This document shows positions 692-44,448 of a stretch of 64,000 nt of DNA, in pieces. The DNA comes from a virus. Each line of letters starts with the position of its first letter. The stretch's first letter is position 1. The position numbers and the translations under genes were made by a program. The notes beneath the pieces are model-generated. The model did not search any database and was not told the origin of the DNA. It saw only the letters and a program-made list of their open reading frames with translations. The stretch covers positions 43,508 to 107,507 of IMG/VR virus record IMGVR_UViG_3300033183_000299; one strand, given 5' to 3'.

Positions 692-1666
692 GTTTTTTCC
701 TTCATTTTTTATTCGCCTCTCGCAAACCTCGATTGCGTCTTCGCTAATGTCGAATAGAATATAGTTACGATCTAATTGTGATGCTGCAACGCCTGTGGTG
801 CCTGCTCCTGCTACCGGATCAAGAATGGTATCTCCAACGTCTGTCGACATCTCAATGATGCGTCTAAGAAGCGATACGGGCTTCTGAGTGGGATAAACTC
901 GTTCCTCTGAGCCCATAGCGATTGAATGAAGATCATCCCAATAATCTGTTGAAGGCTTGCCTTTTGACTCATGAGCATATATCTTCTTGTAGGGGTTTGC
1001 ATTCTTCTTATTGCTTGGAAAGTGAATCCGATCATCTTTGATCAGATCCTCTAAATCATCCTTGGACATTCTCCAGCCATAAGTTGGAGTATAAGTCTTG
1101 CCGTTGTGAGTAATGCTATAGTAACGTTCCGACTTGCTTTTGTCTGGTGCTTGCGTCTTTGTGTAGCAAACATGACCAAGAGCATAGTTTCCTCGACTGT
1201 CCTTGTTCTTGTAAGAGTTCTCCGCATAGTAAGAGTCCAATGGTTGATAGACCATGTTGAACTTTGGCTTCTCGATATGAGAGCACCAAAAGATCACATC
1301 AGTGCACGCTCCGAGTTTAGACTTGATGTTGTTCTTTGATCTCGAACGTTTCCAAAAGATTGGCTGAACTCTCCGAAAAAATTTTGAGCAGATCATGTGA
1401 GGAATAAGCATTTGATCTGCCGAGATGTGAAAGAAAAACGATCCATCTTTCTTTAAGACTCTCGCACACTCTTTGACCATCGGTTGCACCAAGGCAACGT
1501 ATTCATCATCAGTAAAGATGTCATCGAAGCCAATGCTATCATCATCTGAAGTTAATCGGTACTTTCGATTTGAATTGAATGGCGGATCGAAATACACAGC
1601 GTCGACACTCTTTGATTCCAGCTCTTTCAACAGCTCTCGCGAGTCTCCAAGTTTAATTATATTCAT
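680..1666 (-). CDS. DNA adenine/N4-cytosine methyltransferase (beta class)
   Basis: DPPF catalytic motif near the N-terminus, YPTQKP, and LDPVAGAGTT SAM-binding motif near the C-terminus. Confidence 0.9.
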   Translation of the reverse strand: MNIIKLGDSRELLKELESKSVDAVYFDPPFNSNRKYRLTSDDDSIGFDDIFTDDEYVALVQPMVKECARVLKKDGSFFFHISADQMLIPHMICSKFFRRVQPIFWKRSRSKNNIKSKLGACTDVIFWCSHIEKPKFNMVYQPLDSYYAENSYKNKDSRGNYALGHVCYTKTQAPDKSKSERYYSITHNGKTYTPTYGWRMSKDDLEDLIKDDRIHFPSNKKNANPYKKIYAHESKGKPSTDYWDDLHSIAMGSEERVYPTQKPVSLLRRIIEMSTDVGDTILDPVAGAGTTGVAASQLDRNYILFDISEDAIEVCERRIKNEGKNLTT

Positions 1667-1674
1667 TATTCCTC

Positions 1675-1902
1675 CTAGTATTTAATTGAGTCAACGATAA
1701 CCTCTTCAGGTTCTCGACAAAAGACATCCCACATCCACTGTCTTATTGTTTCAATACCAACGTATGTGAATAGATGTGCTTGTTCTTCTTCTAACTCGTA
1801 ATTCATAATCATCTCTTCTATCTCGTGCCTATACAGTGAGTAGAAAGACGATTGGTCACACTCTGGTGACCAAAATATTGTTAAGTCTATTCTTATAGGC
1901 AT
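1675..1902 (-). CDS. hypothetical protein
   Basis: 75-aa ORF packed between dnaE-C and the MTase. Confidence 0.6.
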   Translation of the reverse strand: MPIRIDLTIFWSPECDQSSFYSLYRHEIEEMIMNYELEEEQAHLFTYVGIETIRQWMWDVFCREPEEVIVDSIKY

Positions 1903-1905
1903 AGT

Positions 1906-4059
1906 TCACCCCAATAGTTTCCAGTTTCTTGATAATCCACCGCGTGTTGAGAAGCCCCAAGTTGCATTATATTGTGGCCACTCCAAGACATAAAGTCTGT
2001 GAGTATAGATGTGGTCCATCTTTGGATCCACTCCCCAACAGTTGATACGTTGCGTTTCCATGTTTGAGTCAATGACTGTGACTTGATAGTAAGCCTTTCC
2101 CGTCTTTGTCTTTCTCTCCGTAACATCAGTTGGGATGCACCAAGCCTTGCCTAGTTCAGGATCGTACTCAGAGATGGGCATGATGCCTTGCATCTCGAAG
2201 AACTTGTAAGCCTTTGGAGGAACAACCATATTGATAGGATAAATCCCAGTCAATGCTTGAAGGTGGTTGATACGCTCACCTTTGCTAAAGTCTCCTTCAT
2301 CTCGATACTTCTCAATGTTCTCTCCAAGTTTCTTCTTGTTCTTTGGCTTGTCAACAACAACCGCAGACCAGAAGTGCTTGTCTCCAAAGAAGCGTTCATC
2401 CATCAAGGAAGTCATCGCTCCGGCTCGACACAGAGCGTCTAAGGACTTTTTATTGACTTTTCGGGCTACGACACCTTTATCGAACAAAAGGTCTTCTACG
2501 GACGAAAATGGACGCTTACGGACGATCTCTTCAATTGCTGCTTCTCCGAGACCCTTGATGGTAGTTAAAGGAGACACAAGGTTTCCGTCAACGACTTCCC
2601 AACGAGTTCCAGATGTGTTGATGTCCAAAGGCTTAACTTTATAGCCAAACGAACGAGCAATGTTGATGGCCGCTTCTTTACGCTTCTCGGGTTCATGATC
2701 CAAGAAAGAAGCAATCCACTGATCTTGATAGTAAGTCTGAAGCCAAGCGCATTGATACGAAATGATAGAGTATGGAATGGCGTGGTTCTTTGAGAAACCA
2801 TAGCCAGAGAAGTATTCCATCTTTTCCCATAGAACCTTAGCATCTTTGAAGGACATGCCTTTCTTCTCGCAACCTTTGACGAAGCGTTCATAAAGATCTT
2901 TCTTCTTTTTCATCTTGGTCTCGGACAAACCTTTCTTGGTCAAGAGCTTACGCAATACGTTAGCGTCAGTCATTGTAATCTTATCTCCGAGAACATTCAC
3001 CAAGTTCATGATGTCCTCTTGGAATACGATAAGGCCAAAGGTCTTGCCCAACACTTGCTCAATCAAAGGATGATCATACTCAACATCGTCGTCTCCGAAC
3101 TTTGCCTTTACATACATCTTATCAACATTAGCAGATAATGGACCGGGACGATAGATAGCACTCACAGTCGCAATTTCCTCGATAGAAGACACTTTCGCGT
3201 TCTTGCCTAATCGTTGCATACCTGAGTTCATAAACTGGAATACACCAGCAAATTTGCCCTCATGAAACACCTCCTCATAAACACGTTGATCTTCCATGTC
3301 GAGAACTGACGGATGAAGGTTTTCATTGTACCATTGGCGACAGTCTTCAAAGGTTGGATTACGAACACCTTGAGAGATAAGGATGCGTTGGATTGCGTCC
3401 TCGAACATCTTAAGAGTCTCGAGACCAAGAATATCAAACTTAATAAAGCCCAATGGTTCCAAGTGACGAACGTTCTGTCCTTCAGCCCAAGGAGTTTGGC
3501 GAATACCTTTCGAAGTAATCAAAGGCATCTTCGCAGGAAGATAGTCTCCGATGATTGCTCCTGCCGCATGACGACCGATTGAGCGTGGTTGACCAATCAA
3601 GCCAAGAACTTGCTCTTGGATATGAGGATAGCTTCTGAAGAAACCTTGGAGGCTCTCGGAGTAATCACAGACCTCTTGAAAGGTCGGAGTGTACACACCA
3701 GCCTTGATGCCGTGCTTTTTCTTTGCGATTGGAGTTGCCTCAGCAAGCATAGCTTTAGTTACAGCATTGACTTCACCGAAGTTAACGCCTTCACGTTTGG
3801 AGATGTCTTTGATTAAAGAAGACAACTGAAGAGTGTTGTAGTTCGAGATGAACGCAACAGAGTCTTCGCCCCATTCCTCGACCATCTTGTCTTTGATAAG
3901 AGAGTTGTCTCCAAAGTCGATATCCACATCCGGCATCGAAGTCTCATTTCTGTTATGGACCAGAAGGCCGTTAACAGCCTCGCTGTTTCCATTTGCGATA
4001 ACCTTGATTGGTATCTCAACGTTATCTAGTTTTTCTATTTTTGATATTGTAAAATTCAT
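1906..4059 (-). CDS. dnaE: DNA polymerase III alpha, C-terminal half (with N-terminal IntC-like fragment)
   Basis: SMPDVDIDF catalytic motif, RHAAG, IKFDILGL, YRPGPL, FQEDIM, YGFSKNHA; own GGAGG SD. Confidence 0.92.
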   Translation of the reverse strand: MNFTISKIEKLDNVEIPIKVIANGNSEAVNGLLVHNRNETSMPDVDIDFGDNSLIKDKMVEEWGEDSVAFISNYNTLQLSSLIKDISKREGVNFGEVNAVTKAMLAEATPIAKKKHGIKAGVYTPTFQEVCDYSESLQGFFRSYPHIQEQVLGLIGQPRSIGRHAAGAIIGDYLPAKMPLITSKGIRQTPWAEGQNVRHLEPLGFIKFDILGLETLKMFEDAIQRILISQGVRNPTFEDCRQWYNENLHPSVLDMEDQRVYEEVFHEGKFAGVFQFMNSGMQRLGKNAKVSSIEEIATVSAIYRPGPLSANVDKMYVKAKFGDDDVEYDHPLIEQVLGKTFGLIVFQEDIMNLVNVLGDKITMTDANVLRKLLTKKGLSETKMKKKKDLYERFVKGCEKKGMSFKDAKVLWEKMEYFSGYGFSKNHAIPYSIISYQCAWLQTYYQDQWIASFLDHEPEKRKEAAINIARSFGYKVKPLDINTSGTRWEVVDGNLVSPLTTIKGLGEAAIEEIVRKRPFSSVEDLLFDKGVVARKVNKKSLDALCRAGAMTSLMDERFFGDKHFWSAVVVDKPKNKKKLGENIEKYRDEGDFSKGERINHLQALTGIYPINMVVPPKAYKFFEMQGIMPISEYDPELGKAWCIPTDVTERKTKTGKAYYQVTVIDSNMETQRINCWGVDPKMDHIYTHRLYVLEWPQYNATWGFSTRGGLSRNWKLLG
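3952..4059 (-). other. IntC-like (split intein C-fragment) peptide on DnaE-C; +1 residue is Arg
   Basis: 36 aa ending NGLLVHN followed by RNETSMPD. Confidence 0.75.
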
Positions 4060-4079
4060 TTATCCTCCGTGTTATTATT

Positions 4080-4108
4080 AATATAACACGAACAGGCATC
4101 CGTGTCAA
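4080..4108 (-). promoter_or_regulatory. sigma70-like promoter for dnaE-C
   Basis: TTGACA-N17-TATATT; the -35 box overlaps the TGA stop of the LAGLIDADG gene. Confidence 0.8.
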
Positions 4109-5049
4109 GTTTTTTTCTTAAGTTTTTGAATTGCACCCTTCACAGAGCTGTAGGTTCGGTTAGGAAAGTGTTCCTTCCAAATGTCGCACGGTCTTTTGCC
4201 TTCTTTAAAATTTTCTAATAGCAAAGACTTTTCTTCAGGTGTCCATTTTTGCTCATAGCGCTTTTTAAGTCCAAGGTAACCACATCTTTTCTCCACACTA
4301 GCGTAAGTTCTGTTTGGGAAGAACTTTTCTAACATTTGACGAACAGACATTTTTTCATGATTATCTCTTAAGATCTGATTGTCCTCTTCGGTCCACCTGT
4401 TGTAGTTTCTGTAGGTTTTTTCCTCTTTGTGCTTCATGAATTTGCCCCACTTTCTCTCCAAGAGAGGCAGATCTTCGCTGTACAGGAAGTTTAGAACATT
4501 TATTGCCGTTGATGACCCAAAAGACAATGTACAAATCCTTTTATGTTCTCTAATGGCCACGATATTCTCAACGACCTCTCTTTCCACAAGAAATTCCAGA
4601 ATTGATGATAGAAACGATTGAGTTCCCAAAATCTGCAACGATAGTTTGTTATTGCTAACGCAGATGCTTCCGTCGCCATCGATGTAGCCACAGATGAACG
4701 CCTTCTTATTCTCTATGTTTTTGAATTCTGGGAACTTAAGAGTCAAAGATTTTGCTGGTGTGATATTCCAGTTTCTCTCTAGATCCCTTTTCCATTGCTT
4801 ACTTGATAGTCCAAAAGAAATTATCTTGTAGCTTTGTCCATTCAAGCGTCTCTCGTCCTCTCTTAGGGAATAGTCTTCACTCAAAAGGTTTGATAGTTTT
4901 CTAAGGTGCTCCGCATCCTTGTAGGATAAGGATATCTTCAGTTCGTTTCCTTTAGATGAGACGTTTCCATCGGCTGCGATGAAACCCGCCCAATAAGAGT
5001 TGAGCGGGGCTTTAATATTAAAGAAGTTGTTATTTTTTTGATAGGCCAT
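4105..5049 (-). CDS. double-motif LAGLIDADG homing endonuclease with two C-terminal Myb/SANT-like repeats
   Basis: YWAGFIAADG and FICGYIDGDG motifs; C-terminal repeats RWTEED...FPNRTYASV and KWTPEE...FPNRTYSSV. Confidence 0.85.
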   Translation of the reverse strand: MAYQKNNNFFNIKAPLNSYWAGFIAADGNVSSKGNELKISLSYKDAEHLRKLSNLLSEDYSLREDERRLNGQSYKIISFGLSSKQWKRDLERNWNITPAKSLTLKFPEFKNIENKKAFICGYIDGDGSICVSNNKLSLQILGTQSFLSSILEFLVEREVVENIVAIREHKRICTLSFGSSTAINVLNFLYSEDLPLLERKWGKFMKHKEEKTYRNYNRWTEEDNQILRDNHEKMSVRQMLEKFFPNRTYASVEKRCGYLGLKKRYEQKWTPEEKSLLLENFKEGKRPCDIWKEHFPNRTYSSVKGAIQKLKKKT

Positions 5050-5086
5050 TTGGTTTTCCTCCTATCTTAAATAGTCAGGAAGCCAA
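5050..5086 (-). promoter_or_regulatory. RBS-sequestering hairpin containing ACTATTTA motif (LAGLIDADG gene)
   Basis: TTGGCTTCCT can pair with AGGAAAACCAA; ACTATTTA at 5068-5075 lies between the arms. Confidence 0.55.
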
Positions 5087-5269
5087 TAAAGCGTCTCCTT
5101 CTTGCAAGTTTTTAACCATAACCTCTTTCTTGTCTCCATTACGAGAGACCTTAACAAACAAGTTGGGGCTCAAAGTTAAAACTTCACCAGTTTCGCTCGT
5201 GAGTCTAATGTAGTCTGCTCTCTCTTTCACTTTGGAGTTTTCATCGTGAACGCCGAATAAGTCACCTCG
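5075..5269 (-). other. degenerate IntN-like tail on DnaE-N
   Basis: 64 aa after FERFLT. ADYIRLTSETGEVLTLSPN...LQEGDALL aligns with the RNR IntN ADVIKIETEDGQELILTPD...LTEEDILL. No block A Cys and no TxxH His. Confidence 0.65.
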
Positions 5270-6682
5270 AGTAAGGAAACGTTCAAAGGGAAGTCCCCAC
5301 TTCATTGGATCAATCTGCGTAATGTTCAAAAGAAAAGCAAGCAAAGACCCTGCTGCAGAACCACGAGCAGGTCCAACAAATGTATAGTTCCAAGAGAAAT
5401 CAGTAATTGCTTTTGTAGCAAGAAAGTATTCAGAGAACTTTTGAGAAGAGATAACATCTAGTTCCTCCGTCAATCGTTTTCGGTAGTGTCGCTTTGTTGT
5501 CTTGTCTGATCCGCGGAGATATGTCTTAAGAGCATCTTCGGCAAGTTCAGCAAGTGCTTCGTCAGCGCTTTTGTCGCTTGGAACCATAAAAGAAGGAAGC
5601 TGAACAGAAGTATCAGGAAGAAAATCTTCAATCTGCTCGAAAGCGATGGTTGCTGTGTTGGTGATTGATTGAATAACCAAATCATCGTCATAATCGAAGT
5701 TACACTCAGCAGAGTATCGCTTATATGATTCCCACATTTCGTGAGCATTTTTAGGATATAACTCATATCCAATTTCCTCTACAGTCTCTGGGATGTTATC
5801 ATCCATCCAAGCAGGCATCTTGCCTAACCAGCCTAGTCGCTTGTAGACTTCACGATCACGCCATGCGTTTGGATTTGGATAGTGAGAGTCACAAGTTGAG
5901 ATCAAACTGATATCAAGTTGCTTTGCTACTTTAATTAGGCATTTGTTTAGTAGATGCTGTTCCGGAATATTATTCCATTGTAATTCAGCATAAAATCTGT
6001 CTCCGAACACGTCTTTAAACTTCTTAAGGTTTCCAATCATGTCCTCTACAATAGCATCTTCGCCTTCTTCTTGCTTTTTCCACATTGACTCTGCGGCGAT
6101 ACCACCAAGACATGCTGTGGCGACGATAACGCCCTCTGAGTGTTTCTTTAAAAGCTCAAAGTCAATACGTGGCTTACGATAGAAGTAGTCTCCAGAGTAT
6201 GACTTGGAAACCATTTCATAGATGTTCTCGAGACCCTTTTGGTTTTGTGCGAGAAGAACGAGGTGACGCTTGCGACCAAGTGCTCGCTTGTCGTCTCGTT
6301 GCTCGTCTTCGATAACCATGGCGGAGTCTCCGCTTTCAATTTCTTTTGCTCGCTTCTTATCTTGAGCAATCTCGTCTCGAAGAGCTTGCCATTCTTCAAG
6401 CGAGTCAATATAGTAAGCTTCAACACCAAAGATTGGCTTGAAGTCTTTACCTTCAGCTTTCATTTCTTTTGCTCGCAACAGTTGGTACGACAAACCATTC
6501 ATGCTTCCATGGTCTGTGAGGGCAAGTGCTCGAGATCCATTCTCATAGGCAAAGTCCATGTGCTCCTGTGGGAAGCCGAAGCCATCGAACATGGAAAATG
6601 CCGAATGTGCATGAAGGCCGACAAACTCGTGGTTGTAGAGTTTTTTACCATTAATTTCTATGTAGTCACTTGTGTTATTCAT
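5075..6682 (-). CDS. dnaE: DNA polymerase III alpha, N-terminal half (PHP domain + start of palm, with IntN-like tail)
   Basis: LHAHSAFSMFDG, ALTDHG, FGVEAY, DSHY, GPARGSAAGS, FERFL motifs. Confidence 0.92.
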   Translation of the reverse strand: MNNTSDYIEINGKKLYNHEFVGLHAHSAFSMFDGFGFPQEHMDFAYENGSRALALTDHGSMNGLSYQLLRAKEMKAEGKDFKPIFGVEAYYIDSLEEWQALRDEIAQDKKRAKEIESGDSAMVIEDEQRDDKRALGRKRHLVLLAQNQKGLENIYEMVSKSYSGDYFYRKPRIDFELLKKHSEGVIVATACLGGIAAESMWKKQEEGEDAIVEDMIGNLKKFKDVFGDRFYAELQWNNIPEQHLLNKCLIKVAKQLDISLISTCDSHYPNPNAWRDREVYKRLGWLGKMPAWMDDNIPETVEEIGYELYPKNAHEMWESYKRYSAECNFDYDDDLVIQSITNTATIAFEQIEDFLPDTSVQLPSFMVPSDKSADEALAELAEDALKTYLRGSDKTTKRHYRKRLTEELDVISSQKFSEYFLATKAITDFSWNYTFVGPARGSAAGSLLAFLLNITQIDPMKWGLPFERFLTRGDLFGVHDENSKVKERADYIRLTSETGEVLTLSPNLFVKVSRNGDKKEVMVKNLQEGDALLAS

Positions 6683-6711
6683 TTGTTCTCCTGTGTTTGT
6701 TAGACAATATT

Positions 6712-6740
6712 AATATAACACGTTGTGTTGATGTTGTCAA
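6712..6740 (-). promoter_or_regulatory. sigma70-like promoter for dnaE-N
   Basis: TTGACA-N17-TATATT. Confidence 0.8.
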
Positions 6741-6907
6741 GTAGAAAGTTTAAGTTTTTTTACTTCTTCTTCATCAATCCAGAAATACTCTTGTGTTTCA
6801 AATTGATATATCTGGAATATCCTGTAGGATCGTCTTTGCTCTACATCAACAATCATGCAAAGACCATCTGCCCAAAGACACTCTATTAAATCTCCTATTT
6901 CAATCAT
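6737..6907 (-). CDS. small KOW/SH3-like barrel protein
   Basis: Manual translation, 56 aa: MIEIGDLIECLWADGLCMIVDVEQ... Confidence 0.55.
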   Translation of the reverse strand: MIEIGDLIECLWADGLCMIVDVEQRRSYRIFQIYQFETQEYFWIDEEEVKKLKLST

Positions 6908-7091
6908 TGGGCAACTTGATGGTTAACATGGGAAATTTTGTCGCTAGTATCTCCCACTCAAATGGTCCTACAATGAATGGTTCTGATCCGAATTCCTCTA
7001 CGAATCTCTCTTCTCGTTCTCGAGCCTCGCACAGAGAAGGCATGCGAGGAACATAATATATGTCTTTGTATTTTATATAAGCGTAAGTCAT
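6900..7091 (-). CDS. hypothetical protein
   Basis: MTYAYIKYKD... start preceded by a GGAGA SD; shorter than the ORF-track call. Confidence 0.5.
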   Translation of the reverse strand: MTYAYIKYKDIYYVPRMPSLCEAREREERFVEEFGSEPFIVGPFEWEILATKFPMLTIKLPND

Positions 7092-7099
7092 TTGTTCTC

Positions 7100-7441
7100 C
7101 TATTTCATGAATGCTTGGACAAGCAATAGTGTTACACAAAGAAGAAGGGATATTCCATTCTTTGCTGTGAACATTGGCTCTCCAAGAAAGTACCAAGTCA
7201 ACGGTATGAACACTAAATATCCGATACCAAATGTCGTGAAACGTATTGTCCATAAAGATTCAATCTCTGCGTAGGCGAATTTTGTTCCCAATGCAAACGA
7301 TAGAGTTGTCAAAGGAGCTGATAGGCAGGCAAATAACAATGCCTTGTTCCCCATATCATCTGCTATGATAGTGGAATTGCTTTGAAACCAAGATAAGGTC
7401 TGTCCTATAAAGAACAGGAGTACTCCGTATATAATATTCAT
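7100..7441 (-). CDS. small multi-pass membrane protein, DMT/SMR-like
   Basis: About 4 hydrophobic segments in 113 aa; YFLGEP...K..ISLLL pattern. Confidence 0.55.
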   Translation of the reverse strand: MNIIYGVLLFFIGQTLSWFQSNSTIIADDMGNKALLFACLSAPLTTLSFALGTKFAYAEIESLWTIRFTTFGIGYLVFIPLTWYFLGEPMFTAKNGISLLLCVTLLLVQAFMK

Positions 7442-16933: not shown

Positions 16934-17977
16934 CTAGAAGATCTCGCAAGATCCTCCTCCACAAGCTATCTCCCCTGACAAATCAGTTTCGTCTGTTGTC
17001 TCTACAACTAGATCCAAGTTCACACTTTTCAGTAATGGAAGCATTTCTTCATACTCTTGCTTGGAGCAGTCCTCGTAAGGAGCCTGCACGTAACTGTGGT
17101 TGGAATAAGGAAGAACCGACAATCCATTGTAAACACCTCGATTACTCCACATCCACTCTCCAACGGTTTCCCATTCATCATCCTTGATGGATACTGTTGC
17201 TGAAACGTTATGGGTATTGCTTCCCTTCTTGTGACCTGGCTTGATCCATTCGGTAGAAACTTTCTTTACTCTCTCGAGCAAATCAAGGGCGCTCTCATGG
17301 CGCGTAATAGCCCCTTCAGGAGCTTTTTGAGGCACAGATAGGATAGCAGTGTCGTGTGGTCGGAAACGGTCGTCCTCGATGAGCTCAGGCAGGTTATTGA
17401 CCAAGTATGAGTAGATTGCCTCATTCTTTCCAACACGCAAGCGGCGAATGTAATAATCATTGTGCCATGCGTGGATACCACTTGACGTTCCAAGAGTGAG
17501 AGAAGTTGTCCCTGCGGGCTTAACGCATGTCTGGCGGGCAGCTTTGTTAATGCCGATTTGCATAGCAACTTGACGGTTCATCTTAGATACCTCCAAAGAA
17601 GCCTCAGTCATGTTGAGACCCAACACACCACCAGAAGCAATACCAGTCATTGATACTCCGATCAAAGCATCTTTCTCGGTTGTACGTTGCCAAACTGGTC
17701 GCAGGTAATGAAAGTCTGTGTATGAGGCTTGGAGAGTTCCAATGAAAGAAGCAGCACGAGAACGAGCATTAAGTTCGTCTTGAGTATTCACATCTGATAC
17801 ATTGATCTCGACCAAGTTACAGAATTGGAAAGGTCGGAGACCGATCTCGCAATTATGAACCAACAGTCCGTTGGCAAAAAAGTTGTGATTCTTTCTAACT
17901 TGAATATCGTAAACATCTCTGTTTTTTTCTACTGTAATTTTTTTAATTTTTGTTCTGTTATAAGTTCTTGTTTCCAT
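16934..17977 (-). CDS. nrdJ: class II (B12) ribonucleotide reductase, C-terminal part with IntC
   Basis: CEIGLRPFQFCNLVE, CVKPAGTTS, C-terminal ACGGGSCEIF; AGGAG SD. Confidence 0.92.
   Translation of the reverse strand: METRTYNRTKIKKITVEKNRDVYDIQVRKNHNFFANGLLVHNCEIGLRPFQFCNLVEINVSDVNTQDELNARSRAASFIGTLQASYTDFHYLRPVWQRTTEKDALIGVSMTGIASGGVLGLNMTEASLEVSKMNRQVAMQIGINKAARQTCVKPAGTTSLTLGTSSGIHAWHNDYYIRRLRVGKNEAIYSYLVNNLPELIEDDRFRPHDTAILSVPQKAPEGAITRHESALDLLERVKKVSTEWIKPGHKKGSNTHNVSATVSIKDDEWETVGEWMWSNRGVYNGLSVLPYSNHSYVQAPYEDCSKQEYEEMLPLLKSVNLDLVVETTDETDLSGEIACGGGSCEIF
17852..17977 (-). other. split intein C-fragment (42 aa)
   Basis: VYDIQVRKNHNFFANGLLVHN followed by Cys+1. Confidence 0.92.
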
Positions 17978-18756
17978 TTTTTTAGCTCCTGTGTATAAGA
18001 ATTTTGTAAATAAGGTTTGATGTCTTTTATGAGTACGACATCTATTTGTAATTTTTCGGAGAGTTCTTTCGTTTTAATCTCTCCTCTGGCCCAATATCCT
18101 TTAATTTCTACTATTTTTACAAGACTGCCTTCTTCATAGATAAAAAAATCTGGTCTGTAAGTTGTCTTCTCCAATTGAAATGTTGTTTGCTCCACGTCCC
18201 ACTCAATCAAATGCTTATCTAGCCATTTAGCATAAACAAACTCATAAGTGCTTCGAAGCCAAACATATTTTTTCTTGCTTTTATTATAATAATATCCCTG
18301 AACGCCTCTGGATGTCTTGTTCGTTCTTCTTTCAAGAGTCTTAAACCAGCCTGATCTCTCTTTGTATGCTTTTTTAAGATTGTTGCTTCTGATTTCTCTT
18401 GTTTTTTGGTAAACCACGTTTTGACCCTTGTTTATTTCTATTTTTAAGATTCCAAATAAAGTTCGAAGCCTTGTTGGTGTCAGGCCTATTTTCTTTGCAA
18501 TAGTTTTTAGACCATAACCTTCCTCATAAGAACTGGTGAGATAATTTTTGAGAAAAAGAAAGTGGTCTGGATAAATCCTTTCGGCATTATTCCGAATAAA
18601 AGATCTTTTATTTGATGATCTCGCAGAATTTCCCATTTGAGACACTCTTGCTGATGCATATTTTCTATATTCTTCCAAGAACTCTTCCGGAATTACCACT
18701 TCCTTTCCCTTGTCTGTGTTATAATAAATAACTTCTAAACATTCTTTTAAATTCAT
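17929..18756 (-). CDS. PD-(D/E)XK homing endonuclease with N-terminal HTH
   Basis: LRSTYE...YRPDFFIY...VEIKGYW; GLKTIAKKIGLTPTRLR HTH; lies between the two split-intein halves. Confidence 0.8.
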   Translation of the reverse strand: MNLKECLEVIYYNTDKGKEVVIPEEFLEEYRKYASARVSQMGNSARSSNKRSFIRNNAERIYPDHFLFLKNYLTSSYEEGYGLKTIAKKIGLTPTRLRTLFGILKIEINKGQNVVYQKTREIRSNNLKKAYKERSGWFKTLERRTNKTSRGVQGYYYNKSKKKYVWLRSTYEFVYAKWLDKHLIEWDVEQTTFQLEKTTYRPDFFIYEEGSLVKIVEIKGYWARGEIKTKELSEKLQIDVVLIKDIKPYLQNSYTQELKKWKQELITEQKLKKLQ

Positions 18757-18806
18757 TTCGGGCTACACTCCTTACATTATTTTATTGTAAATAGTGGCCC
18801 GAAATG
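18754..18806 (-). promoter_or_regulatory. start-codon-sequestering hairpin with ACTATTTA motif
   Basis: CATTTCGGGC / GCCCGAAATG perfect 10-bp stem including the ATG; motif at 18788-18795. Confidence 0.75.
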
Positions 18807-18815
18807 GCAAAATAA

Positions 18816-19121
18816 TTATTCAACGAATAAAAGAATGTCCTCTTCGGTTAAATGTGCCGCTTCAACATAGCCTCTGTTTTCAGTGAATACTCTGTGGTCT
18901 GGGGTTAGGATTAATTCCTGTCCGTCCTCGGTTTCAATCTTGATGACATCGGCATCTTGTCTCGTAAGAAGACCCTCTTCAACCAACTCAAACTCCATTG
19001 ACCCCGTGTTCTCATCAAATGATAAGACCTTTATTTCTTGACCTTCATTGACTTTTGAGACGATCTGTTCGATTGTCATTGTACCAGAATTCGTCTCTAT
19101 CTCAGTTGAGCCATCCAAACA
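18816..19121 (-). other. split intein N-fragment (101 aa)
   Basis: CLDGST block A; LILTPDHRVF block B. Confidence 0.92.
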
Positions 19122-20117
19122 ACATGGGTTGCAACCCCAATCTTTGTCGTTCGAGAAGTAGAAACCGGGCTCTCCAGAGCGAGACTCTTCAACACGCTTC
19201 CATAGATTCATGAATGTTGGCTTGTCGATCTTGTGACGCATTACAACTACAGAATTATTCGCTCTTCCTCGTTGTGGGTTGAGTTCCCACCAAGCTCCGG
19301 CCTTTGCGCTAAGCATGTCTTCGTCATCAGCACTGAATAGACTAATGAGAGCGGCGCGACGAATACCGCCCGCCAAAACCGCATCCGCAATGTGGCAGAT
19401 GATATCATGAACCTCAATGGGTGAAAGCTTGTCTCCGTTTTCTTTCGCATCTAAAATTCCCTCCACTTTTACCAGACACTCCTTTAATGGCTGAGGGCCT
19501 GGTGCTTTACCACCTGATGTTACAAGTCTCGCACCTTTGGGGCGAATGTCCGAGAAGTCAAAACGCAACTTTGACGTTCCCTTAAAGTGAGACATCATAA
19601 GGGCTTTTACAGCATCGGCCCATCCTTCGATTGAGTCACCAATTAAGAAACGACGAGTTCTCTTTGATGAAGGCTTGCGAATCTCTGGGAGGTTATCTAC
19701 ATGATGCTTTTGCACTGAATAGCCCACACCTGTGCCTCCAAGAAGTAAGAACATGATCTCTCCGAACACTCGAGGATCATCAGCGGGTGCATAAGCGCAG
19801 TTAAAGATGCGGTTCGGCGAAACCTCAATTGGCTTACCTCCAAACTGCATCGATCTCATTGAAGGAAGAACCTTCTTGTCGAACACGAATTTGTAGTTCT
19901 CACGGATCTCTTGCTCGAGACTTGGAAACTTCTTGATGTGCATTTCCATATTACGAGTTACTAACTCGTTCCAGTTTTCTCGACGATTCTTATCTTCAAG
20001 ATATCGTGCATATTTCATGTGGACGGTGATGTCCGACAGAATCTTTTTCTCTAAATCCATACCTTTCTCCTGTAGTTTTTTGTAGTATTCTTTTTCCTTT
20101 TCTGTGTAGGTGTCCAT
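18816..20117 (-). CDS. nrdJ: class II ribonucleotide reductase, N-terminal part with IntN
   Basis: LPSMRSMQFGG, FNCAY, RRAALISL, GEPGF, WGCNPC; a start at 20060 is also plausible (AGGAG SD). Confidence 0.92.
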   Translation of the reverse strand: MDTYTEKEKEYYKKLQEKGMDLEKKILSDITVHMKYARYLEDKNRRENWNELVTRNMEMHIKKFPSLEQEIRENYKFVFDKKVLPSMRSMQFGGKPIEVSPNRIFNCAYAPADDPRVFGEIMFLLLGGTGVGYSVQKHHVDNLPEIRKPSSKRTRRFLIGDSIEGWADAVKALMMSHFKGTSKLRFDFSDIRPKGARLVTSGGKAPGPQPLKECLVKVEGILDAKENGDKLSPIEVHDIICHIADAVLAGGIRRAALISLFSADDEDMLSAKAGAWWELNPQRGRANNSVVVMRHKIDKPTFMNLWKRVEESRSGEPGFYFSNDKDWGCNPCCLDGSTEIETNSGTMTIEQIVSKVNEGQEIKVLSFDENTGSMEFELVEEGLLTRQDADVIKIETEDGQELILTPDHRVFTENRGYVEAAHLTEEDILLFVE

Positions 20118-33803: not shown

Positions 33804-34942
33804 TTTACTTTAAACTTTCCCAACTTAGTATCTCCAAACATCTCTTTAAGTTGAGGTATCAATCTTCTGTCATCTCGATGTAAGTCGATAACAACGCTGT
33901 CGTGAACAACAAAAGCAACATGGGATCTTGTTGCCCTAAGGAAGTTAGAAAGTTTGCAGAAGCGTTCAATGGTGTTGTCTGAGGAGGTTGATTGCAGTAA
34001 AAAGTTGAGGGCTTTACGAACGGGAGCAGCAATTGTCCGTCCAAATGGGGTATGTACTTGTCCTTCTTTGTAGTGCTGTTCAAGCAAGACTTCCCTGTCG
34101 TAGTAATCGGATTGGATAGCTTGTGATTCTTGATTATAGAGCCAAGCGAATATTTTTGTTTTTGCTTTTTCTCGAGCAATTTGCTCGTTAAATACGTTTT
34201 TGATATTCCATTCATGTATGTCTTCCTCTGGTTGGTCGTGTCCTTGTAGTGCAAGCATTGTTCTAATTTCTGCTGCGTTGAAATCCAATTCTAAAAACAC
34301 ATCGTTTGTTGGTGTTACGAAATTCTTAAGTTCTTTTTTCAAATTTAAGATTGGAAATGAATTTCTTTTTGTTGTGAGTCGACCAGTTACTGTTCCAAAT
34401 AGATCGTAGTCAACATATGGTGTTGTCTCACCAAATTGATCATAAAGGTATTTTGCTTTCTGATCTTCAGCTGAAATGCAATAGAGAGCGAATGTATTTA
34501 ATTTCACAGGGTGCTTTTTCAACTCTTTAATTGCTGCTTGGGCATCTTTCAGCAGAGTGTAGTGGGCTGGTCTTTCATAATTATCAAATACCCATTGTGT
34601 GATCTCGTTCTTAGTGTCGAAGTAGTGCTGAAGGTGCTTCTGTGGGACCACATCATAAAAGCATACATCTTCGAGGTTAATCCCTGCTGTTCTAATTCCT
34701 TTGAAGTGAGACTTCAAGAGATCTTCGGCTCGTAGCCACTGTGTTTTTAAGTGCTCTGGGCATATATCGGCGATTGTCTTTCCTCCAACTATCAATTGTG
34801 CATAGTCAATATTTCTACCGAACAAGTGGTCCGAATATGACCATGTTTTGGTGATTCCGTTTGGAATTTTATCCCAAATGAATTGTCCATCAATGTAAGT
34901 TCCGGCACAATCAAGTTTTGAATCTAAAAGTTGAAAATACAT
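33755..34942 (-). CDS. polA: compact family-A DNA polymerase
   Basis: TVTGRLT, motif A LDFNAAEIR, motif B KAKTKIFAWLY, TPFGR, ALNFLLQS, motif C VHDS; start MYFQ with GGAGG SD. Confidence 0.85.
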   Translation of the reverse strand: MYFQLLDSKLDCAGTYIDGQFIWDKIPNGITKTWSYSDHLFGRNIDYAQLIVGGKTIADICPEHLKTQWLRAEDLLKSHFKGIRTAGINLEDVCFYDVVPQKHLQHYFDTKNEITQWVFDNYERPAHYTLLKDAQAAIKELKKHPVKLNTFALYCISAEDQKAKYLYDQFGETTPYVDYDLFGTVTGRLTTKRNSFPILNLKKELKNFVTPTNDVFLELDFNAAEIRTMLALQGHDQPEEDIHEWNIKNVFNEQIAREKAKTKIFAWLYNQESQAIQSDYYDREVLLEQHYKEGQVHTPFGRTIAAPVRKALNFLLQSTSSDNTIERFCKLSNFLRATRSHVAFVVHDSVVIDLHRDDRRLIPQLKEMFGDTKLGKFKVNCSLGKNLGNMKEFTW

Positions 34943-42067: not shown

Positions 42068-44448
42068 TATCCTGCTCTCCCAATAACTGCCTTAGCTTCT
42101 GTTCTTATTATATCTCGAAGCTCTCTGTCTCCGATATATACTTTGACACTAATATCAGGCATTTTCATTTCAGGCATCTTAACGTCTACGACGAGTTTTC
42201 CTTCACTGATATTTTTAATCATTCCTTCGGAACCCATGATGAAAGATGAGTTTGTACCATCTGTGGTCATTGCGAGAAATCCATCGATCTTAACCGTTGA
42301 TAATTCCATAAGAACTGATTTAACTTTTTCTAATCCGCTAGCTATCGCTGACGTATCTATGCTGGCAGCGGCTTGGATATCCATGGCTTTTCCGCCTGGA
42401 TGTGCTGCGTCATAAACATTGCTCATTTCGTCAGAAAGAGCACTTAATTCTCCTCTAGCGCCGGAAGCATCTTTGCCCATTCTTGTGAACGTAGGGCCCA
42501 AGTCTTTATCGAACATTCCTTCGGCCATCGAACGAGAACCAGGTTTGTGGATAATATCCCACAGTTGACTCAAGGCTCCTACGAAAGCAATAATGCCGGC
42601 AATAGCCCATCCAACAGGAGTTAACATGCCTGCAATACTCGCGCCTACTGCTCCGAATTTGACTGCTAATGCTCCGAGAAAAACGACCGTAGGCGCAATC
42701 ACAGCAACAAACTTTACAACATACGCTATGAGAGGAGTAATAAAGGAAATAAATTTGGCAATCATCATAATAACAGGGCTAAAGGCTAAAAACAATTCCG
42801 TAACGGCTAGCTTCAGCTGAGTCATAAATGGTACTAAACTTTCTGTCGCATCAGAAAGTTCTTTTTGGATATCTGCTTGTTGTTTTTGGCCTTTCTCGTA
42901 TTGTTGATATTCCGCCATACTCATATTTAATAACTTCTGAGCCTCAGCTACATCCTTCACTCCCATTGCTTGGGCGATGTATTGTTTTGTATATTTGTCG
43001 AGAGAGTCAAAGTTCCCAACAGACATTTGAACTTGTTGCTTTAACATTAATATTCTCTCGGAATCTGTGGCTTGCATCATTTCAAGAGTCGAAAGTTGCG
43101 TACCAAGCACTGCGTTTAATTTAGCGGCAGATTCTGCCGCGGAATCAAACTTGTCAAACTTCTCTGTAATTCCAAGAAGTGTTTGCATTTCAATACCCGA
43201 TGCTTTAGCTGCAGCCGCAAGTTCTTTAAAAACTTTGATATTGTTTTTTCCATATATTGCTAAACGACCAGAAGCAGAATTGAAGTCTTCAATCATCTTA
43301 GTGCCGGTAATTCCAATTTCCTTGCCCATTCGCGCAAGTTGAGCTGTGGCATCGGCTGCCTGCTCTCCAGTCATGCCCATGGATCTTTGCATATGCTCCA
43401 TTGATTTAACTGAAGAGGCAGCAGAAACCCCAAGCTTCTCCAGTCTTGCGACAGTCAGTCCCATATATTCGTTTGTTTTTTCTGATTTTGGATTAAAAGA
43501 AGACAACCCCTGCGTCAAAGCTTTCAAGGCCTCGGCAGACTCTCTGAATCCAATACCGGCCATGTTTCCTTGTTTCGCCATTCTTGTAATTTCTTCATTG
43601 AATTGATCGCCAAAGCCGGTTGCTGCGCCCAATTGTTTAGATAAATTGTTCACCTCCAAACCCATTTTTACAATTACCCCAATGAAAGCTACCCCAGCTA
43701 GTACCGCGGCAACGCTCCCCTTAGCAAATTTTTCTGAACCCTCTAAGAAAAATTTGCTAGTTTTCAACATGCCTTCGCCTATTTTCCCACCGGTTTTAAG
43801 GCCTATCTTTCCAATGAAACTTCCAAATTTTTCCATGTTGTTTGTGACTTTAAAAGTTTTCGAAAGTAAATCGCCGACAACAGGTAATTTACCAGCATAA
43901 TCCCCTAGGATGTCAAATACATCTTCTTGTCTTTCTTCCATATCTTTCATGGAATCCTTGTTTTTGTCTATCTGCTCGCCAATTTTTTCTAATAAAGCTT
44001 TTTGCTTTTTAAGCTTCTCTTCGGTTTCGTTCATGCTTTTTTCAGCATCCGAGACCATCTTTTTTCTTTCTTCTCTTTGCGCTACTAGTGCGTTTCTTTG
44101 TTTTTTTAGGGTTTCAAGGAGATCTTCTTCTTCTGCTGATGTAAGACCTTCTTGGGACTTCTTTCTTAGGGACGCTATTTCCTTAACTATAGAGCTGTAT
44201 TCTTCTTGAAGCTTATTGTTTTCTTCTAAAATTTTGTTTAGTTTTTCTTGCTTTTTTATTCGTTCAGCTAGATACCTCTCTTCTCTTTCTTCTGCATCTT
44301 TGCGAGAGTTTATCAGCCTCTCTTCTCTTTCTTCCTGTTCTTTTAGTAGCTTGTTGTATTCTTCTTGAGAAACTCTTTTTTTCTTCAAGAGTTCCAATAC
44401 TTCTTTAGCTATCTCGGATTCATTGTTTGTTGGTTCATCAGTAGCCAT
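42067..44448 (-). CDS. tape measure protein
   Basis: Long helical, Ala/Gly-rich protein with hydrophobic stretches; follows the tail chaperone. Confidence 0.75.
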   Translation of the reverse strand: MATDEPTNNESEIAKEVLELLKKKRVSQEEYNKLLKEQEEREERLINSRKDAEEREERYLAERIKKQEKLNKILEENNKLQEEYSSIVKEIASLRKKSQEGLTSAEEEDLLETLKKQRNALVAQREERKKMVSDAEKSMNETEEKLKKQKALLEKIGEQIDKNKDSMKDMEERQEDVFDILGDYAGKLPVVGDLLSKTFKVTNNMEKFGSFIGKIGLKTGGKIGEGMLKTSKFFLEGSEKFAKGSVAAVLAGVAFIGVIVKMGLEVNNLSKQLGAATGFGDQFNEEITRMAKQGNMAGIGFRESAEALKALTQGLSSFNPKSEKTNEYMGLTVARLEKLGVSAASSVKSMEHMQRSMGMTGEQAADATAQLARMGKEIGITGTKMIEDFNSASGRLAIYGKNNIKVFKELAAAAKASGIEMQTLLGITEKFDKFDSAAESAAKLNAVLGTQLSTLEMMQATDSERILMLKQQVQMSVGNFDSLDKYTKQYIAQAMGVKDVAEAQKLLNMSMAEYQQYEKGQKQQADIQKELSDATESLVPFMTQLKLAVTELFLAFSPVIMMIAKFISFITPLIAYVVKFVAVIAPTVVFLGALAVKFGAVGASIAGMLTPVGWAIAGIIAFVGALSQLWDIIHKPGSRSMAEGMFDKDLGPTFTRMGKDASGARGELSALSDEMSNVYDAAHPGGKAMDIQAAASIDTSAIASGLEKVKSVLMELSTVKIDGFLAMTTDGTNSSFIMGSEGMIKNISEGKLVVDVKMPEMKMPDISVKVYIGDRELRDIIRTEAKAVIGRAG

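Follow-up and report, generated by a model that had tools for sequence, protein, structure and literature searches.

The C-family DNA polymerase DnaE of a marine phage is encoded in two pieces, and our analysis of the locus indicates, with a probability that we put at about 0.7, that the polymerase is a non-covalent two-chain enzyme, whose chains are never ligated and are joined by docking between an intein-derived tail at the C-terminus of one chain and an intein-derived head at the N-terminus of the other. The locus lies in a stretch of 64,000 nucleotides (the window), positions 43,508 to 107,507 of the IMG/VR virus record IMGVR_UViG_3300033183_000299, a CheckV-complete genome of 183,930 bp. 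An original prediction, made from the letters of the window, had described a two-chain polymerase carrying a HINT-derived, splicing-dead pair of intein halves (IntN and IntC for the N- and C-terminal half, respectively), and this proposal is supported by the ancestry, selection, conservation and complex prediction described below.

The locus comprises three successive open reading frames (ORFs) on the minus strand, the N-half of DnaE, a homing endonuclease gene and the C-half, and both the ORF coordinates and the Pfam domains agree with the predicted arrangement of two DnaE ORFs around a LAGLIDADG gene (Table 1). The N-half matches PF02811 (PHP, E 5e-31) and positions 2-95 of PF07733 (DNA_pol3_alpha, E 1.5e-24), and the C-half matches positions 95-260 of PF07733 together with PF17657 (finger) and PF14579 (HHH_6), such that the palm model is severed at a single profile position (95) coinciding with the ORF junction. 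All domains of a C-family polymerase (PHP, palm with PDxDxDF, fingers, HhH) are present across the two ORFs with scores above the Pfam cut-offs, both halves are full length, and the PHP, PDxDxDF and KFDILGL motifs are intact, as had been claimed. The break is located in the loop just upstream of the catalytic PDxDxDF strand. At its 3' end the N-half reads FERFLT and then RGDLFG, with 64 residues from there to the stop, and at its 5' end the C-half encodes 36 residues finishing NGLLVHN, followed by RNETSMPDVDIDF; the junction residues originally quoted were all correct. The assignment of a separate promoter and Shine-Dalgarno (SD) sequence to each half also held: the two promoter-like sites have 11 of 12 matches each and an extended -10, rank as the top two sigma-70-like sites in the region, and are each followed by an SD. 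The surroundings of the extended -10 are nearly the same at both (cgtgtTATATTAATA), which suggests one promoter class and co-expression of the halves.

Table 1. Features of the split dnaE locus, its unsplit counterpart, related loci and the in-genome control
Feature	Position	Strand	Description
DnaE N-half coding sequence, 535 aa	5075..6682	(-)	PHP and first 95 palm profile positions, then tail
DnaE C-half coding sequence, 717 aa	1906..4059	(-)	head, catalytic PDVDIDF, remaining palm, fingers, HhH
N-half C-terminal tail	5078..5269	(-)	residues 472-535; cassette start by DNA homology at D474 (5263)
HINT-like beta part of tail	5078-5215	(-)	residues from about 490 on
C-half N-terminal head	3934..4059	(-)	residues 1-42
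IntC-like head segment	3952-4059	(-)	residues 1-36, ending NGLLVHN
Free-standing homing endonuclease gene, 314 aa	4105..5049	(-)	double LAGLIDADG core and two C-terminal Myb-like domains
Promoter-like site 5' of N-half	6712..6740	(-)	TTGACA, 17 nt, TG-TATATT; then AGGAGA and ATG
Promoter-like site 5' of C-half	4080..4108	(-)	near-identical -10 region; then GGAGGA and ATG
Short spacer with endonuclease SD	5050..5086	(-)	weak hairpin: N-half end pairs with SD
Unsplit L023-type allele, putative endonuclease target region	around FERFLTRGSDGFPD		
Fractured class II ribonucleotide reductase (NrdJ)	16934-20117	(-)	101-aa IntN (Cys1, TPDH), 275-aa ORF, 42-aa IntC ending NGLLVHN|C
Three-piece DnaE relatives	P0007/L008; L021 2266-8321; L020 4001-8922		canonical split inteins mixed with degenerate junction

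Alignment at the DNA level with the unsplit sister allele L023 revealed homology through the FERFLTRG codons and again from the PD codons, delimiting the inserted unit as D474 to the stop of the N-half, the endonuclease gene, and M1 to M42 of the C-half. The unit substitutes for four codons (SDGF) of the L023 allele, and head residues 37-42 (RNETSM) fall inside it. The junction had previously been placed between the T and R of FERFLT|R; joining the halves there does restore the 7-residue spacing, whereas the DNA boundary differs, since homology with L023 continues through FERFLTRG. Many unsplit relatives are equally close and encode an ordinary 1140-aa DnaE reading FERFLTRGSDGFPDIDIDF.

The tail appears to be HINT-derived, a conclusion supported by profile searches, profile-profile alignment and the predicted fold. 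A search of the PDB with a profile built from seven tails, each taken together with 11 residues of the extein, matched the M. jannaschii KlbA intein (E 0.0045) and a VMA intein (E 0.12), both alignments falling in the block B region. A profile of the tail only, run against 1.84 billion representative proteins, gave nine matches: six N-pieces of split DnaE that carry the tail at the extreme C-terminus, two low-complexity repeats, and one Hedgehog-type Hint (Hog-Hint) module (E 4.8e-5), again aligned at block B. Consistent with the claim that the tail resembles the second half of an IntN, an hhalign comparison of eleven tails with four canonical IntNs, one of which was that of NrdJ from the same phage, placed tail residues 17-64 onto residues 55-99 of 101 (P 1.7e-5, probability 79%). 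AlphaFold2 run on the tail alignment predicted a disordered segment of 17 residues and then a beta unit of four to five strands (pLDDT 78-91, model residues 20-65). With this model as a Foldseek query, the top 13 of 350,542 PDB chains were inteins or hedgehog autoprocessing domains only (probability up to 0.99, rmsd 1.6-2.5 Å over 40-46 columns), at E values of 0.36 or above, which do not reach significance with a query of this length. The top 17 hits of a model of the gut-branch tail were likewise all HINT (best E 0.035), a model of low confidence (pLDDT 62) used for ranking only. The tail lacks the first 45-50 residues of a canonical IntN, block A among them, and about 15 disordered residues stand in their place.

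The evidence for the ancestry of the head is weaker than that for the tail because the head is short. The claimed likeness to an IntC was borne out by BLASTP against the phage's own NrdJ IntC (12 of 19 residues identical, E 3e-4) and by hhalign against six IntC sequences, which was collinear and full length (P 0.0024). The NGLLVHN of the head consists of the same seven residues as block G of the NrdJ IntC; the two sets of codons differ at five of 21 bases, every difference being synonymous, which rules out recent gene conversion as the origin of the likeness. Tail and head would thus be descendants of split-intein halves, the source probably being a large LAGLIDADG intein broken into three ORFs, of which the IntN from block B to its end and a full-length IntC would survive. 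No contiguous (cis) form of the degenerate intein was found.

Complex prediction, conducted with the C-terminal 75 residues of the N-half and the N-terminal 60 of the C-half together with the alignments of their respective families, points to binding between tail and head: the interface score ipSAE was 0.64 (runs 0.63-0.66) as compared to 0.01 for the best control. Of 80 solved complexes, 58 attain a score of 0.64, as do two of 110 mismatched pairs, counts that calibrate the present value only roughly because our own alignments were supplied. The predicted interface comprises residues 15-75 of chain 1, all of them tail, and residues 2-21 and 27-38 of chain 2, in the head. The prediction was judged by score and interface residues and not by coordinates, so that the HINT likeness of the pair is not visible from it. 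Of the originally proposed splicing-dead HINT clamp, the docking of tail and head is thus predicted, whereas the term HINT clamp overstates the fold, since IntN residues ~1-50 are gone and about half of the HINT fold remains.

In the mechanism we propose, the near-identical promoters would co-express both halves, while the endonuclease has its own signals. The disordered head, chiefly its first strand MNFxIxKIEKL, would complement the small beta-structure of the tail with a strand, as the halves of split inteins associate ahead of splicing. Docking would join the palm fragments about seven residues ahead of the catalytic aspartates and keep them in register, so that the palm domain could fold across two chains; the association step would have been retained and the splicing chemistry dropped. 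According to PMC11766414, which cites Shah et al. 2013, split inteins assemble by capture and collapse, in which a disordered IntN part and a disordered IntC recognize each other and compact onto a pre-folded N-intein region. By analogy with that account, we infer that the lost 45-50 IntN residues would correspond to the pre-folded region.

Several observations weigh against this reading. No canonical intein or Hint model of Pfam reaches threshold on tail or head (PF01079 attains a best E of 0.068, in three of seven tails only, and PF14890, searched across the whole genome at E up to 1, finds the NrdJ intein alone), and BLASTP gives no alignment between the tail and the phage's own NrdJ IntN, leaving a homology visible only through profiles. 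Only about half of a HINT domain is encoded. The last residues of the head may be in part a decayed extein segment (FLNPERTSMPD) from a donor allele and not block G, given that HN-RNETSMPD aligns with the bacterial DnaE extein consensus LN-PERTSMPD. Binding of tail to head rests on one structure-prediction test, whose ipSAE score may reflect memory of solved split inteins, although a score so obtained would still mean likeness to a split-intein pair. The estimates of selection given below are rough owing to partial saturation. A PolA-like open frame of 420 aa at ~33836-34408 (-), with weak matches to family A polymerases (35.9 bits combined), may encode a second, small polymerase, so that reliance of the phage on DnaE is unproven. 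Lastly, in the gut phage L005 the C-half is almost without a head, and the N-tail is retained in extended form, with a conserved strand-like motif at its end; the tail there is unable to work via head pairing and may have another or additional role.

This gut-phage branch also speaks for the strongest of the competing explanations, namely that the halves assemble via the split palm itself, and that tail and head are passengers from a mobile element (stabilizing or capping the ends, aiding folding, or binding elsewhere in the replisome) and not a clamp. Consistent with such an explanation, the DnaE N-pieces P0014, P0015, P0020, P0024 and P0027 break at the same site with unrelated tails, in part Cys/His-rich, and the tails of Aeromonas phage Aeh1 NrdA are reported to be dispensable for the heterodimer and needed for higher-order assembly and activity (PMC3045599). 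Conversely, the predicted interface is tail-to-head and passed its controls, the first strand of the head is invariant in the close clade and still a recognizable strand in more distant lineages, and tail and head stay together after loss of the endonuclease gene. On balance we consider assembly by the palm alone unlikely, but well ahead of the remaining alternatives.

Docking in place of splicing, the reading we favor, is further supported by the residues on which splicing depends. The original prediction noted that the window has no Cys or Ser at position 1, a block B reading SPNL, a degenerate block F, and Arg at +1. These features are real, and their recurrence in independent contigs shows that they are not sequencing errors. 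Following FERFLTRG, the residues D-L-F-G offer no block A nucleophile, and no Cys or Ser is conserved in 11 tails. Block B, which reads TPDH, TEDH or INH in the canonical inteins of the same genes and not SPNL as in the window, is SPEL, SADL, TPGL, DPRL or similar in the relatives, its His never being present, and the Asp and His of block F are both replaced. The +1 residue is Arg or Lys throughout the close clade, Pro in L021 and Ala in L020. Block G ends HN in the window; its penultimate position varies among H, R and S, with R or S found in close relatives, and the terminal Asn is kept in nine of ten heads, the exception being L020, which ends SS. Among the relatives examined, these residues indicate no spliceable form of this tail/head pair.

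The same residues bear on the possibility of a still-working split intein of an unrecognized mechanistic class, ligating the halves, or cleaving after Asn36, without Cys, Ser or Thr at position 1 or +1. Block G of the window head is perfect, Asn36 is invariant in an alignment of seven heads and the heads of L021 and L022 also end in Asn, T40, four residues past Asn36, does not vary within the close clade, and position 1 of an intein can vary, as the Ala1 inteins illustrate. However, such an intein would have to act with no nucleophile at either junction, without the block B His, the block F Asp and His and the ~45-50 N-terminal IntN residues, and with a penultimate His that gives way to Arg or Ser and, in L020, a Ser-Ser end. 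Moreover, cutting after Asn36 would release the head and so defeat any docking role. We therefore regard a working intein as highly improbable, and the Asn-driven C-terminal cleavage originally suggested as unlikely, since the penultimate His varies and one lineage lacks the Asn.

In-genome and in-gene controls are available in the form of canonical inteins, beginning with the split intein of NrdJ in the window. The three-piece DnaE of P0007 and L021 has a canonical split intein (HN|C) at a site in the PHP domain and the degenerate tail/LAGLIDADG/head arrangement at the FERFL site, L020 combines the degenerate junction with a canonical split intein further downstream in dnaE (Cys1, TEDH, SN|C), and P0012 bears a canonical IntN with Cys1 and INH, some two residues away from this break site. 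Where splicing is expected, the motifs it requires are thus retained, and the FERFL junction consistently lacks them.

At least 10 independent contigs from metagenomes share this tail and head, with the same or equivalent junction residues in L006-L013 and L020-L022 and in clusters P0056-P0061 and P0175-P0183. The tail is found in P0006, P0007, P0008, P0011 and P0175-P0183, and the head in P0056-P0061, L006-L013 and L020-L022. Close relatives are 30-88% identical to the window over the junction region and tail, and the non-spliceable state is conserved in the clade of the window and in L006, L020, L021 and L022.

Purifying selection acts on the tail, the head and the endonuclease alike. Pairwise Nei-Gojobori estimates of omega (dN/dS; the L006 tail excluded) were 0.06-0.22 for the tail, 0.02-0.37 for the head, 0.02-0.13 for the neighboring extein and 0.05-0.17 for the endonuclease, at dS values of 0.4-2 that are partly saturated. 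The original prediction had proposed searching for DnaE split at this site and estimating dN/dS on the tails; such relatives were found, and selection on the tail is not relaxed.

LAGLIDADG genes are frequently carried by introns, and the two ORFs lie 1 nt apart in the Cellulophaga phages and overlap by 4 nt in L020, features compatible with removal of the interruption at the level of RNA or translation (a group I intron with a LAGLIDADG ORF, bypassing, or frameshifting) to give a single-chain DnaE. Such removal is scarcely credible in view of several observations. No group I intron was detected, Rfam giving no match at E up to 1 over positions 1500-7200; the purifying selection on tail and head acts at the protein level; every ORF comes with a promoter-like site, an SD and a start of its own; L006, which retains tail and head without an endonuclease gene, keeps a stop, promoter and start within a 70-nt spacer; and excision at the DNA-level boundaries would cost four loop codons. 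Public sequencing runs yielded one seawater DNA run with 14% of the words, and no RNA run. Equally remote is decay of the split dnaE into a pseudogene, with replication by host or other polymerases such as the small PolA-like frame, given full-length halves with intact PHP, PDxDxDF and KFDILGL motifs, the low omega of the exteins, conservation of the arrangement in many lineages and cultured phages, and the fact that the split DnaE is the only one in the 183.9-kb CheckV-complete genome, which also has no PolB.

The endonuclease matches LAGLIDADG_3 (PF14528) in two stretches (E 9e-10) and Myb (E 2e-5), and both of its LAGLIDADG motifs are conserved in seven homologues. Homologues hold the same position in L007, L008, L010-L012 and L021, even the distant L021 copy being 39% identical. 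The combination of LAGLIDADG with two C-terminal Myb-like domains, seemingly an unusual architecture for this nuclease family, is conserved in seven loci. In a quick IQ-TREE analysis of 90 C-exteins, the six split alleles are interspersed with the 84 unsplit ones, well-supported branches force at least four changes, and one split allele is sister to an unsplit allele with 100% support, a distribution that fits a cassette moving between alleles by homing or recombination. The tail-endonuclease-head cassette therefore looks mobile, and the original description of the unit as domesticated is doubtful, given this scatter and an endonuclease under selection. Tail and head nevertheless outlast loss of the endonuclease gene, in L006 and in the Cellulophaga phages. 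In L007, a GIY-YIG gene and an N6/N4 methyltransferase gene lie just upstream of the split dnaE (1404-1961), and the neighborhood seems to collect mobile nuclease genes.

Under the docking mechanism, the tail-endonuclease-head unit would probably still home into the unsplit dnaE of related phages, and the damage of homing would be neutralized by docking rather than splicing. A broader proposal, which we hold tentatively and at slightly short of even odds, is that the unit constitutes a distinct class of selfish element, a 'post-intein' that still homes into intact dnaE and repairs by docking; the DnaE loop between FERFL and PD, in phages and bacteria alike, would then be a hot spot where the transition occurred and diversified, with more than a thousand gut-phage protein clusters, and two-chain C-family replicases would be common in nature.

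A diverged and partly different tail is present at the same break in cultured Cellulophaga, Tenacibaculum and Bacteroides phages, lineages in which the head is unevenly kept. In Cellulophaga phi13:1, phiST and phi19:2 and in Tenacibaculum Larrie the halves are adjacent, without an endonuclease gene, and the head is ~16 aa. The N-half of the Bacteroides BS-TP1 type (L004, P0188-P0307) has an 81-aa tail, reading PER and then AGLxPxDTTIIG ... FDNKDxLFTINEL, and is represented in gut metagenomes by 1848 protein clusters at 90% identity (E<=1e-3); it is followed by a helicase gene, placing the C-half elsewhere. The P0014-group N-pieces introduced above are ~430-450 aa long, on contigs of up to 93 kb, and end just past FERFLNxGR in short unrelated tails, those of P0014, P0024 and P0027 being Cys/His-rich. 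These tails look like another way of dealing with the same break, and the DnaE site itself tolerates fragmentation. A 129-aa protein, P0177, consists of an IntC, ~30 extein residues and the dead tail. Two further sets of sequences were set aside: full-length tblastn matches in Streptomyces phages are spurious, being ordinary unsplit DnaE aligning beyond the junction, and the 855-aa proteins of the P0030 type are a separate PHP-less DnaE group.

The closest structural precedent for the locus is the fractured gene, in which a split intein and a free-standing homing endonuclease gene lie between adjacent gene halves, three DnaE loci being included (Dassa et al. 2009, PMC2677866). Shared features are the adjacent same-strand halves of a phage replication gene, the free-standing endonuclease gene between them, the intein-type halves at the break, and a hairpin sequestering the endonuclease SD, which here is weak (-13.9 kcal/mol, z -1.6) and not significant taken alone; NrdJ of the window is a canonical fractured gene in the same phage. 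In contrast, the split inteins of PMC2677866 all keep five catalytic residues and have an IntN of 88-105 aa, whereas the present unit has no nucleophile, no block B His and an IntN of ~62 aa, and its endonuclease is LAGLIDADG/Myb rather than GIY-YIG or Vsr-like. The three DnaE loci of that study may include the present FERFL/PD site.

The closest functional precedent is NrdA of Aeromonas phage Aeh1, encoded by the 'genes in pieces' nrdA-a / mobE / nrdA-b (Crona et al. 2011, PMC3045599). According to that report, an endonuclease gene splits an essential gene, leaving insertion-derived C-terminal and N-terminal tails that are needed for function without RNA or protein splicing, as we propose here; the tails are described there as unique sequences, as opposed to the HINT-derived ones of DnaE, and the system pairs an HNH endonuclease with nrdA rather than LAGLIDADG with dnaE. 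By analogy, the present system may be viewed as a hybrid of the fractured genes and the Aeh1 genes in pieces. The cyanobacterial split DnaE (Ssp/Npu DnaE-n/DnaE-c) likewise has two DnaE genes whose products first associate via IntN and IntC, but its insertion point differs (PMC2677866), its halves occupy separate loci, and it trans-splices efficiently with Cys1 and Cys+1, whereas splicing chemistry is lacking here.

A full-text literature search, incomplete and covering few subscription journals, returned nothing on a natural split-intein remnant that does not splice and that joins the parts of a split DnaE. Engineered splicing-dead split inteins serve as affinity pairs, with tight non-covalent IntN/IntC binding only; they are laboratory mutants of complete inteins, in contrast to the natural, truncated and long-conserved pair described here. 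If the docking reading is correct, this pair marks a point at which the evolution of an intein can naturally end, with the chemistry of splicing gone and the association of fragments retained, and thus a natural example of protein splicing decayed into plain non-covalent assembly. It links two phenomena usually handled apart, on one side the fractured genes, whose split inteins are active, and on the other the genes that an endonuclease has split and that rely on docking tails, and genes carrying both canonical and dead split inteins provide a clean system for separating the residues of association from those of catalysis. The tail-head pair would, in addition, be a small, naturally optimized and orthogonal docking module, much shorter than a full split intein and of use in protein engineering. 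Lastly, many phage replicases, including those of cultured Cellulophaga, Tenacibaculum and Bacteroides phages, would be two-chain C-family polymerases.

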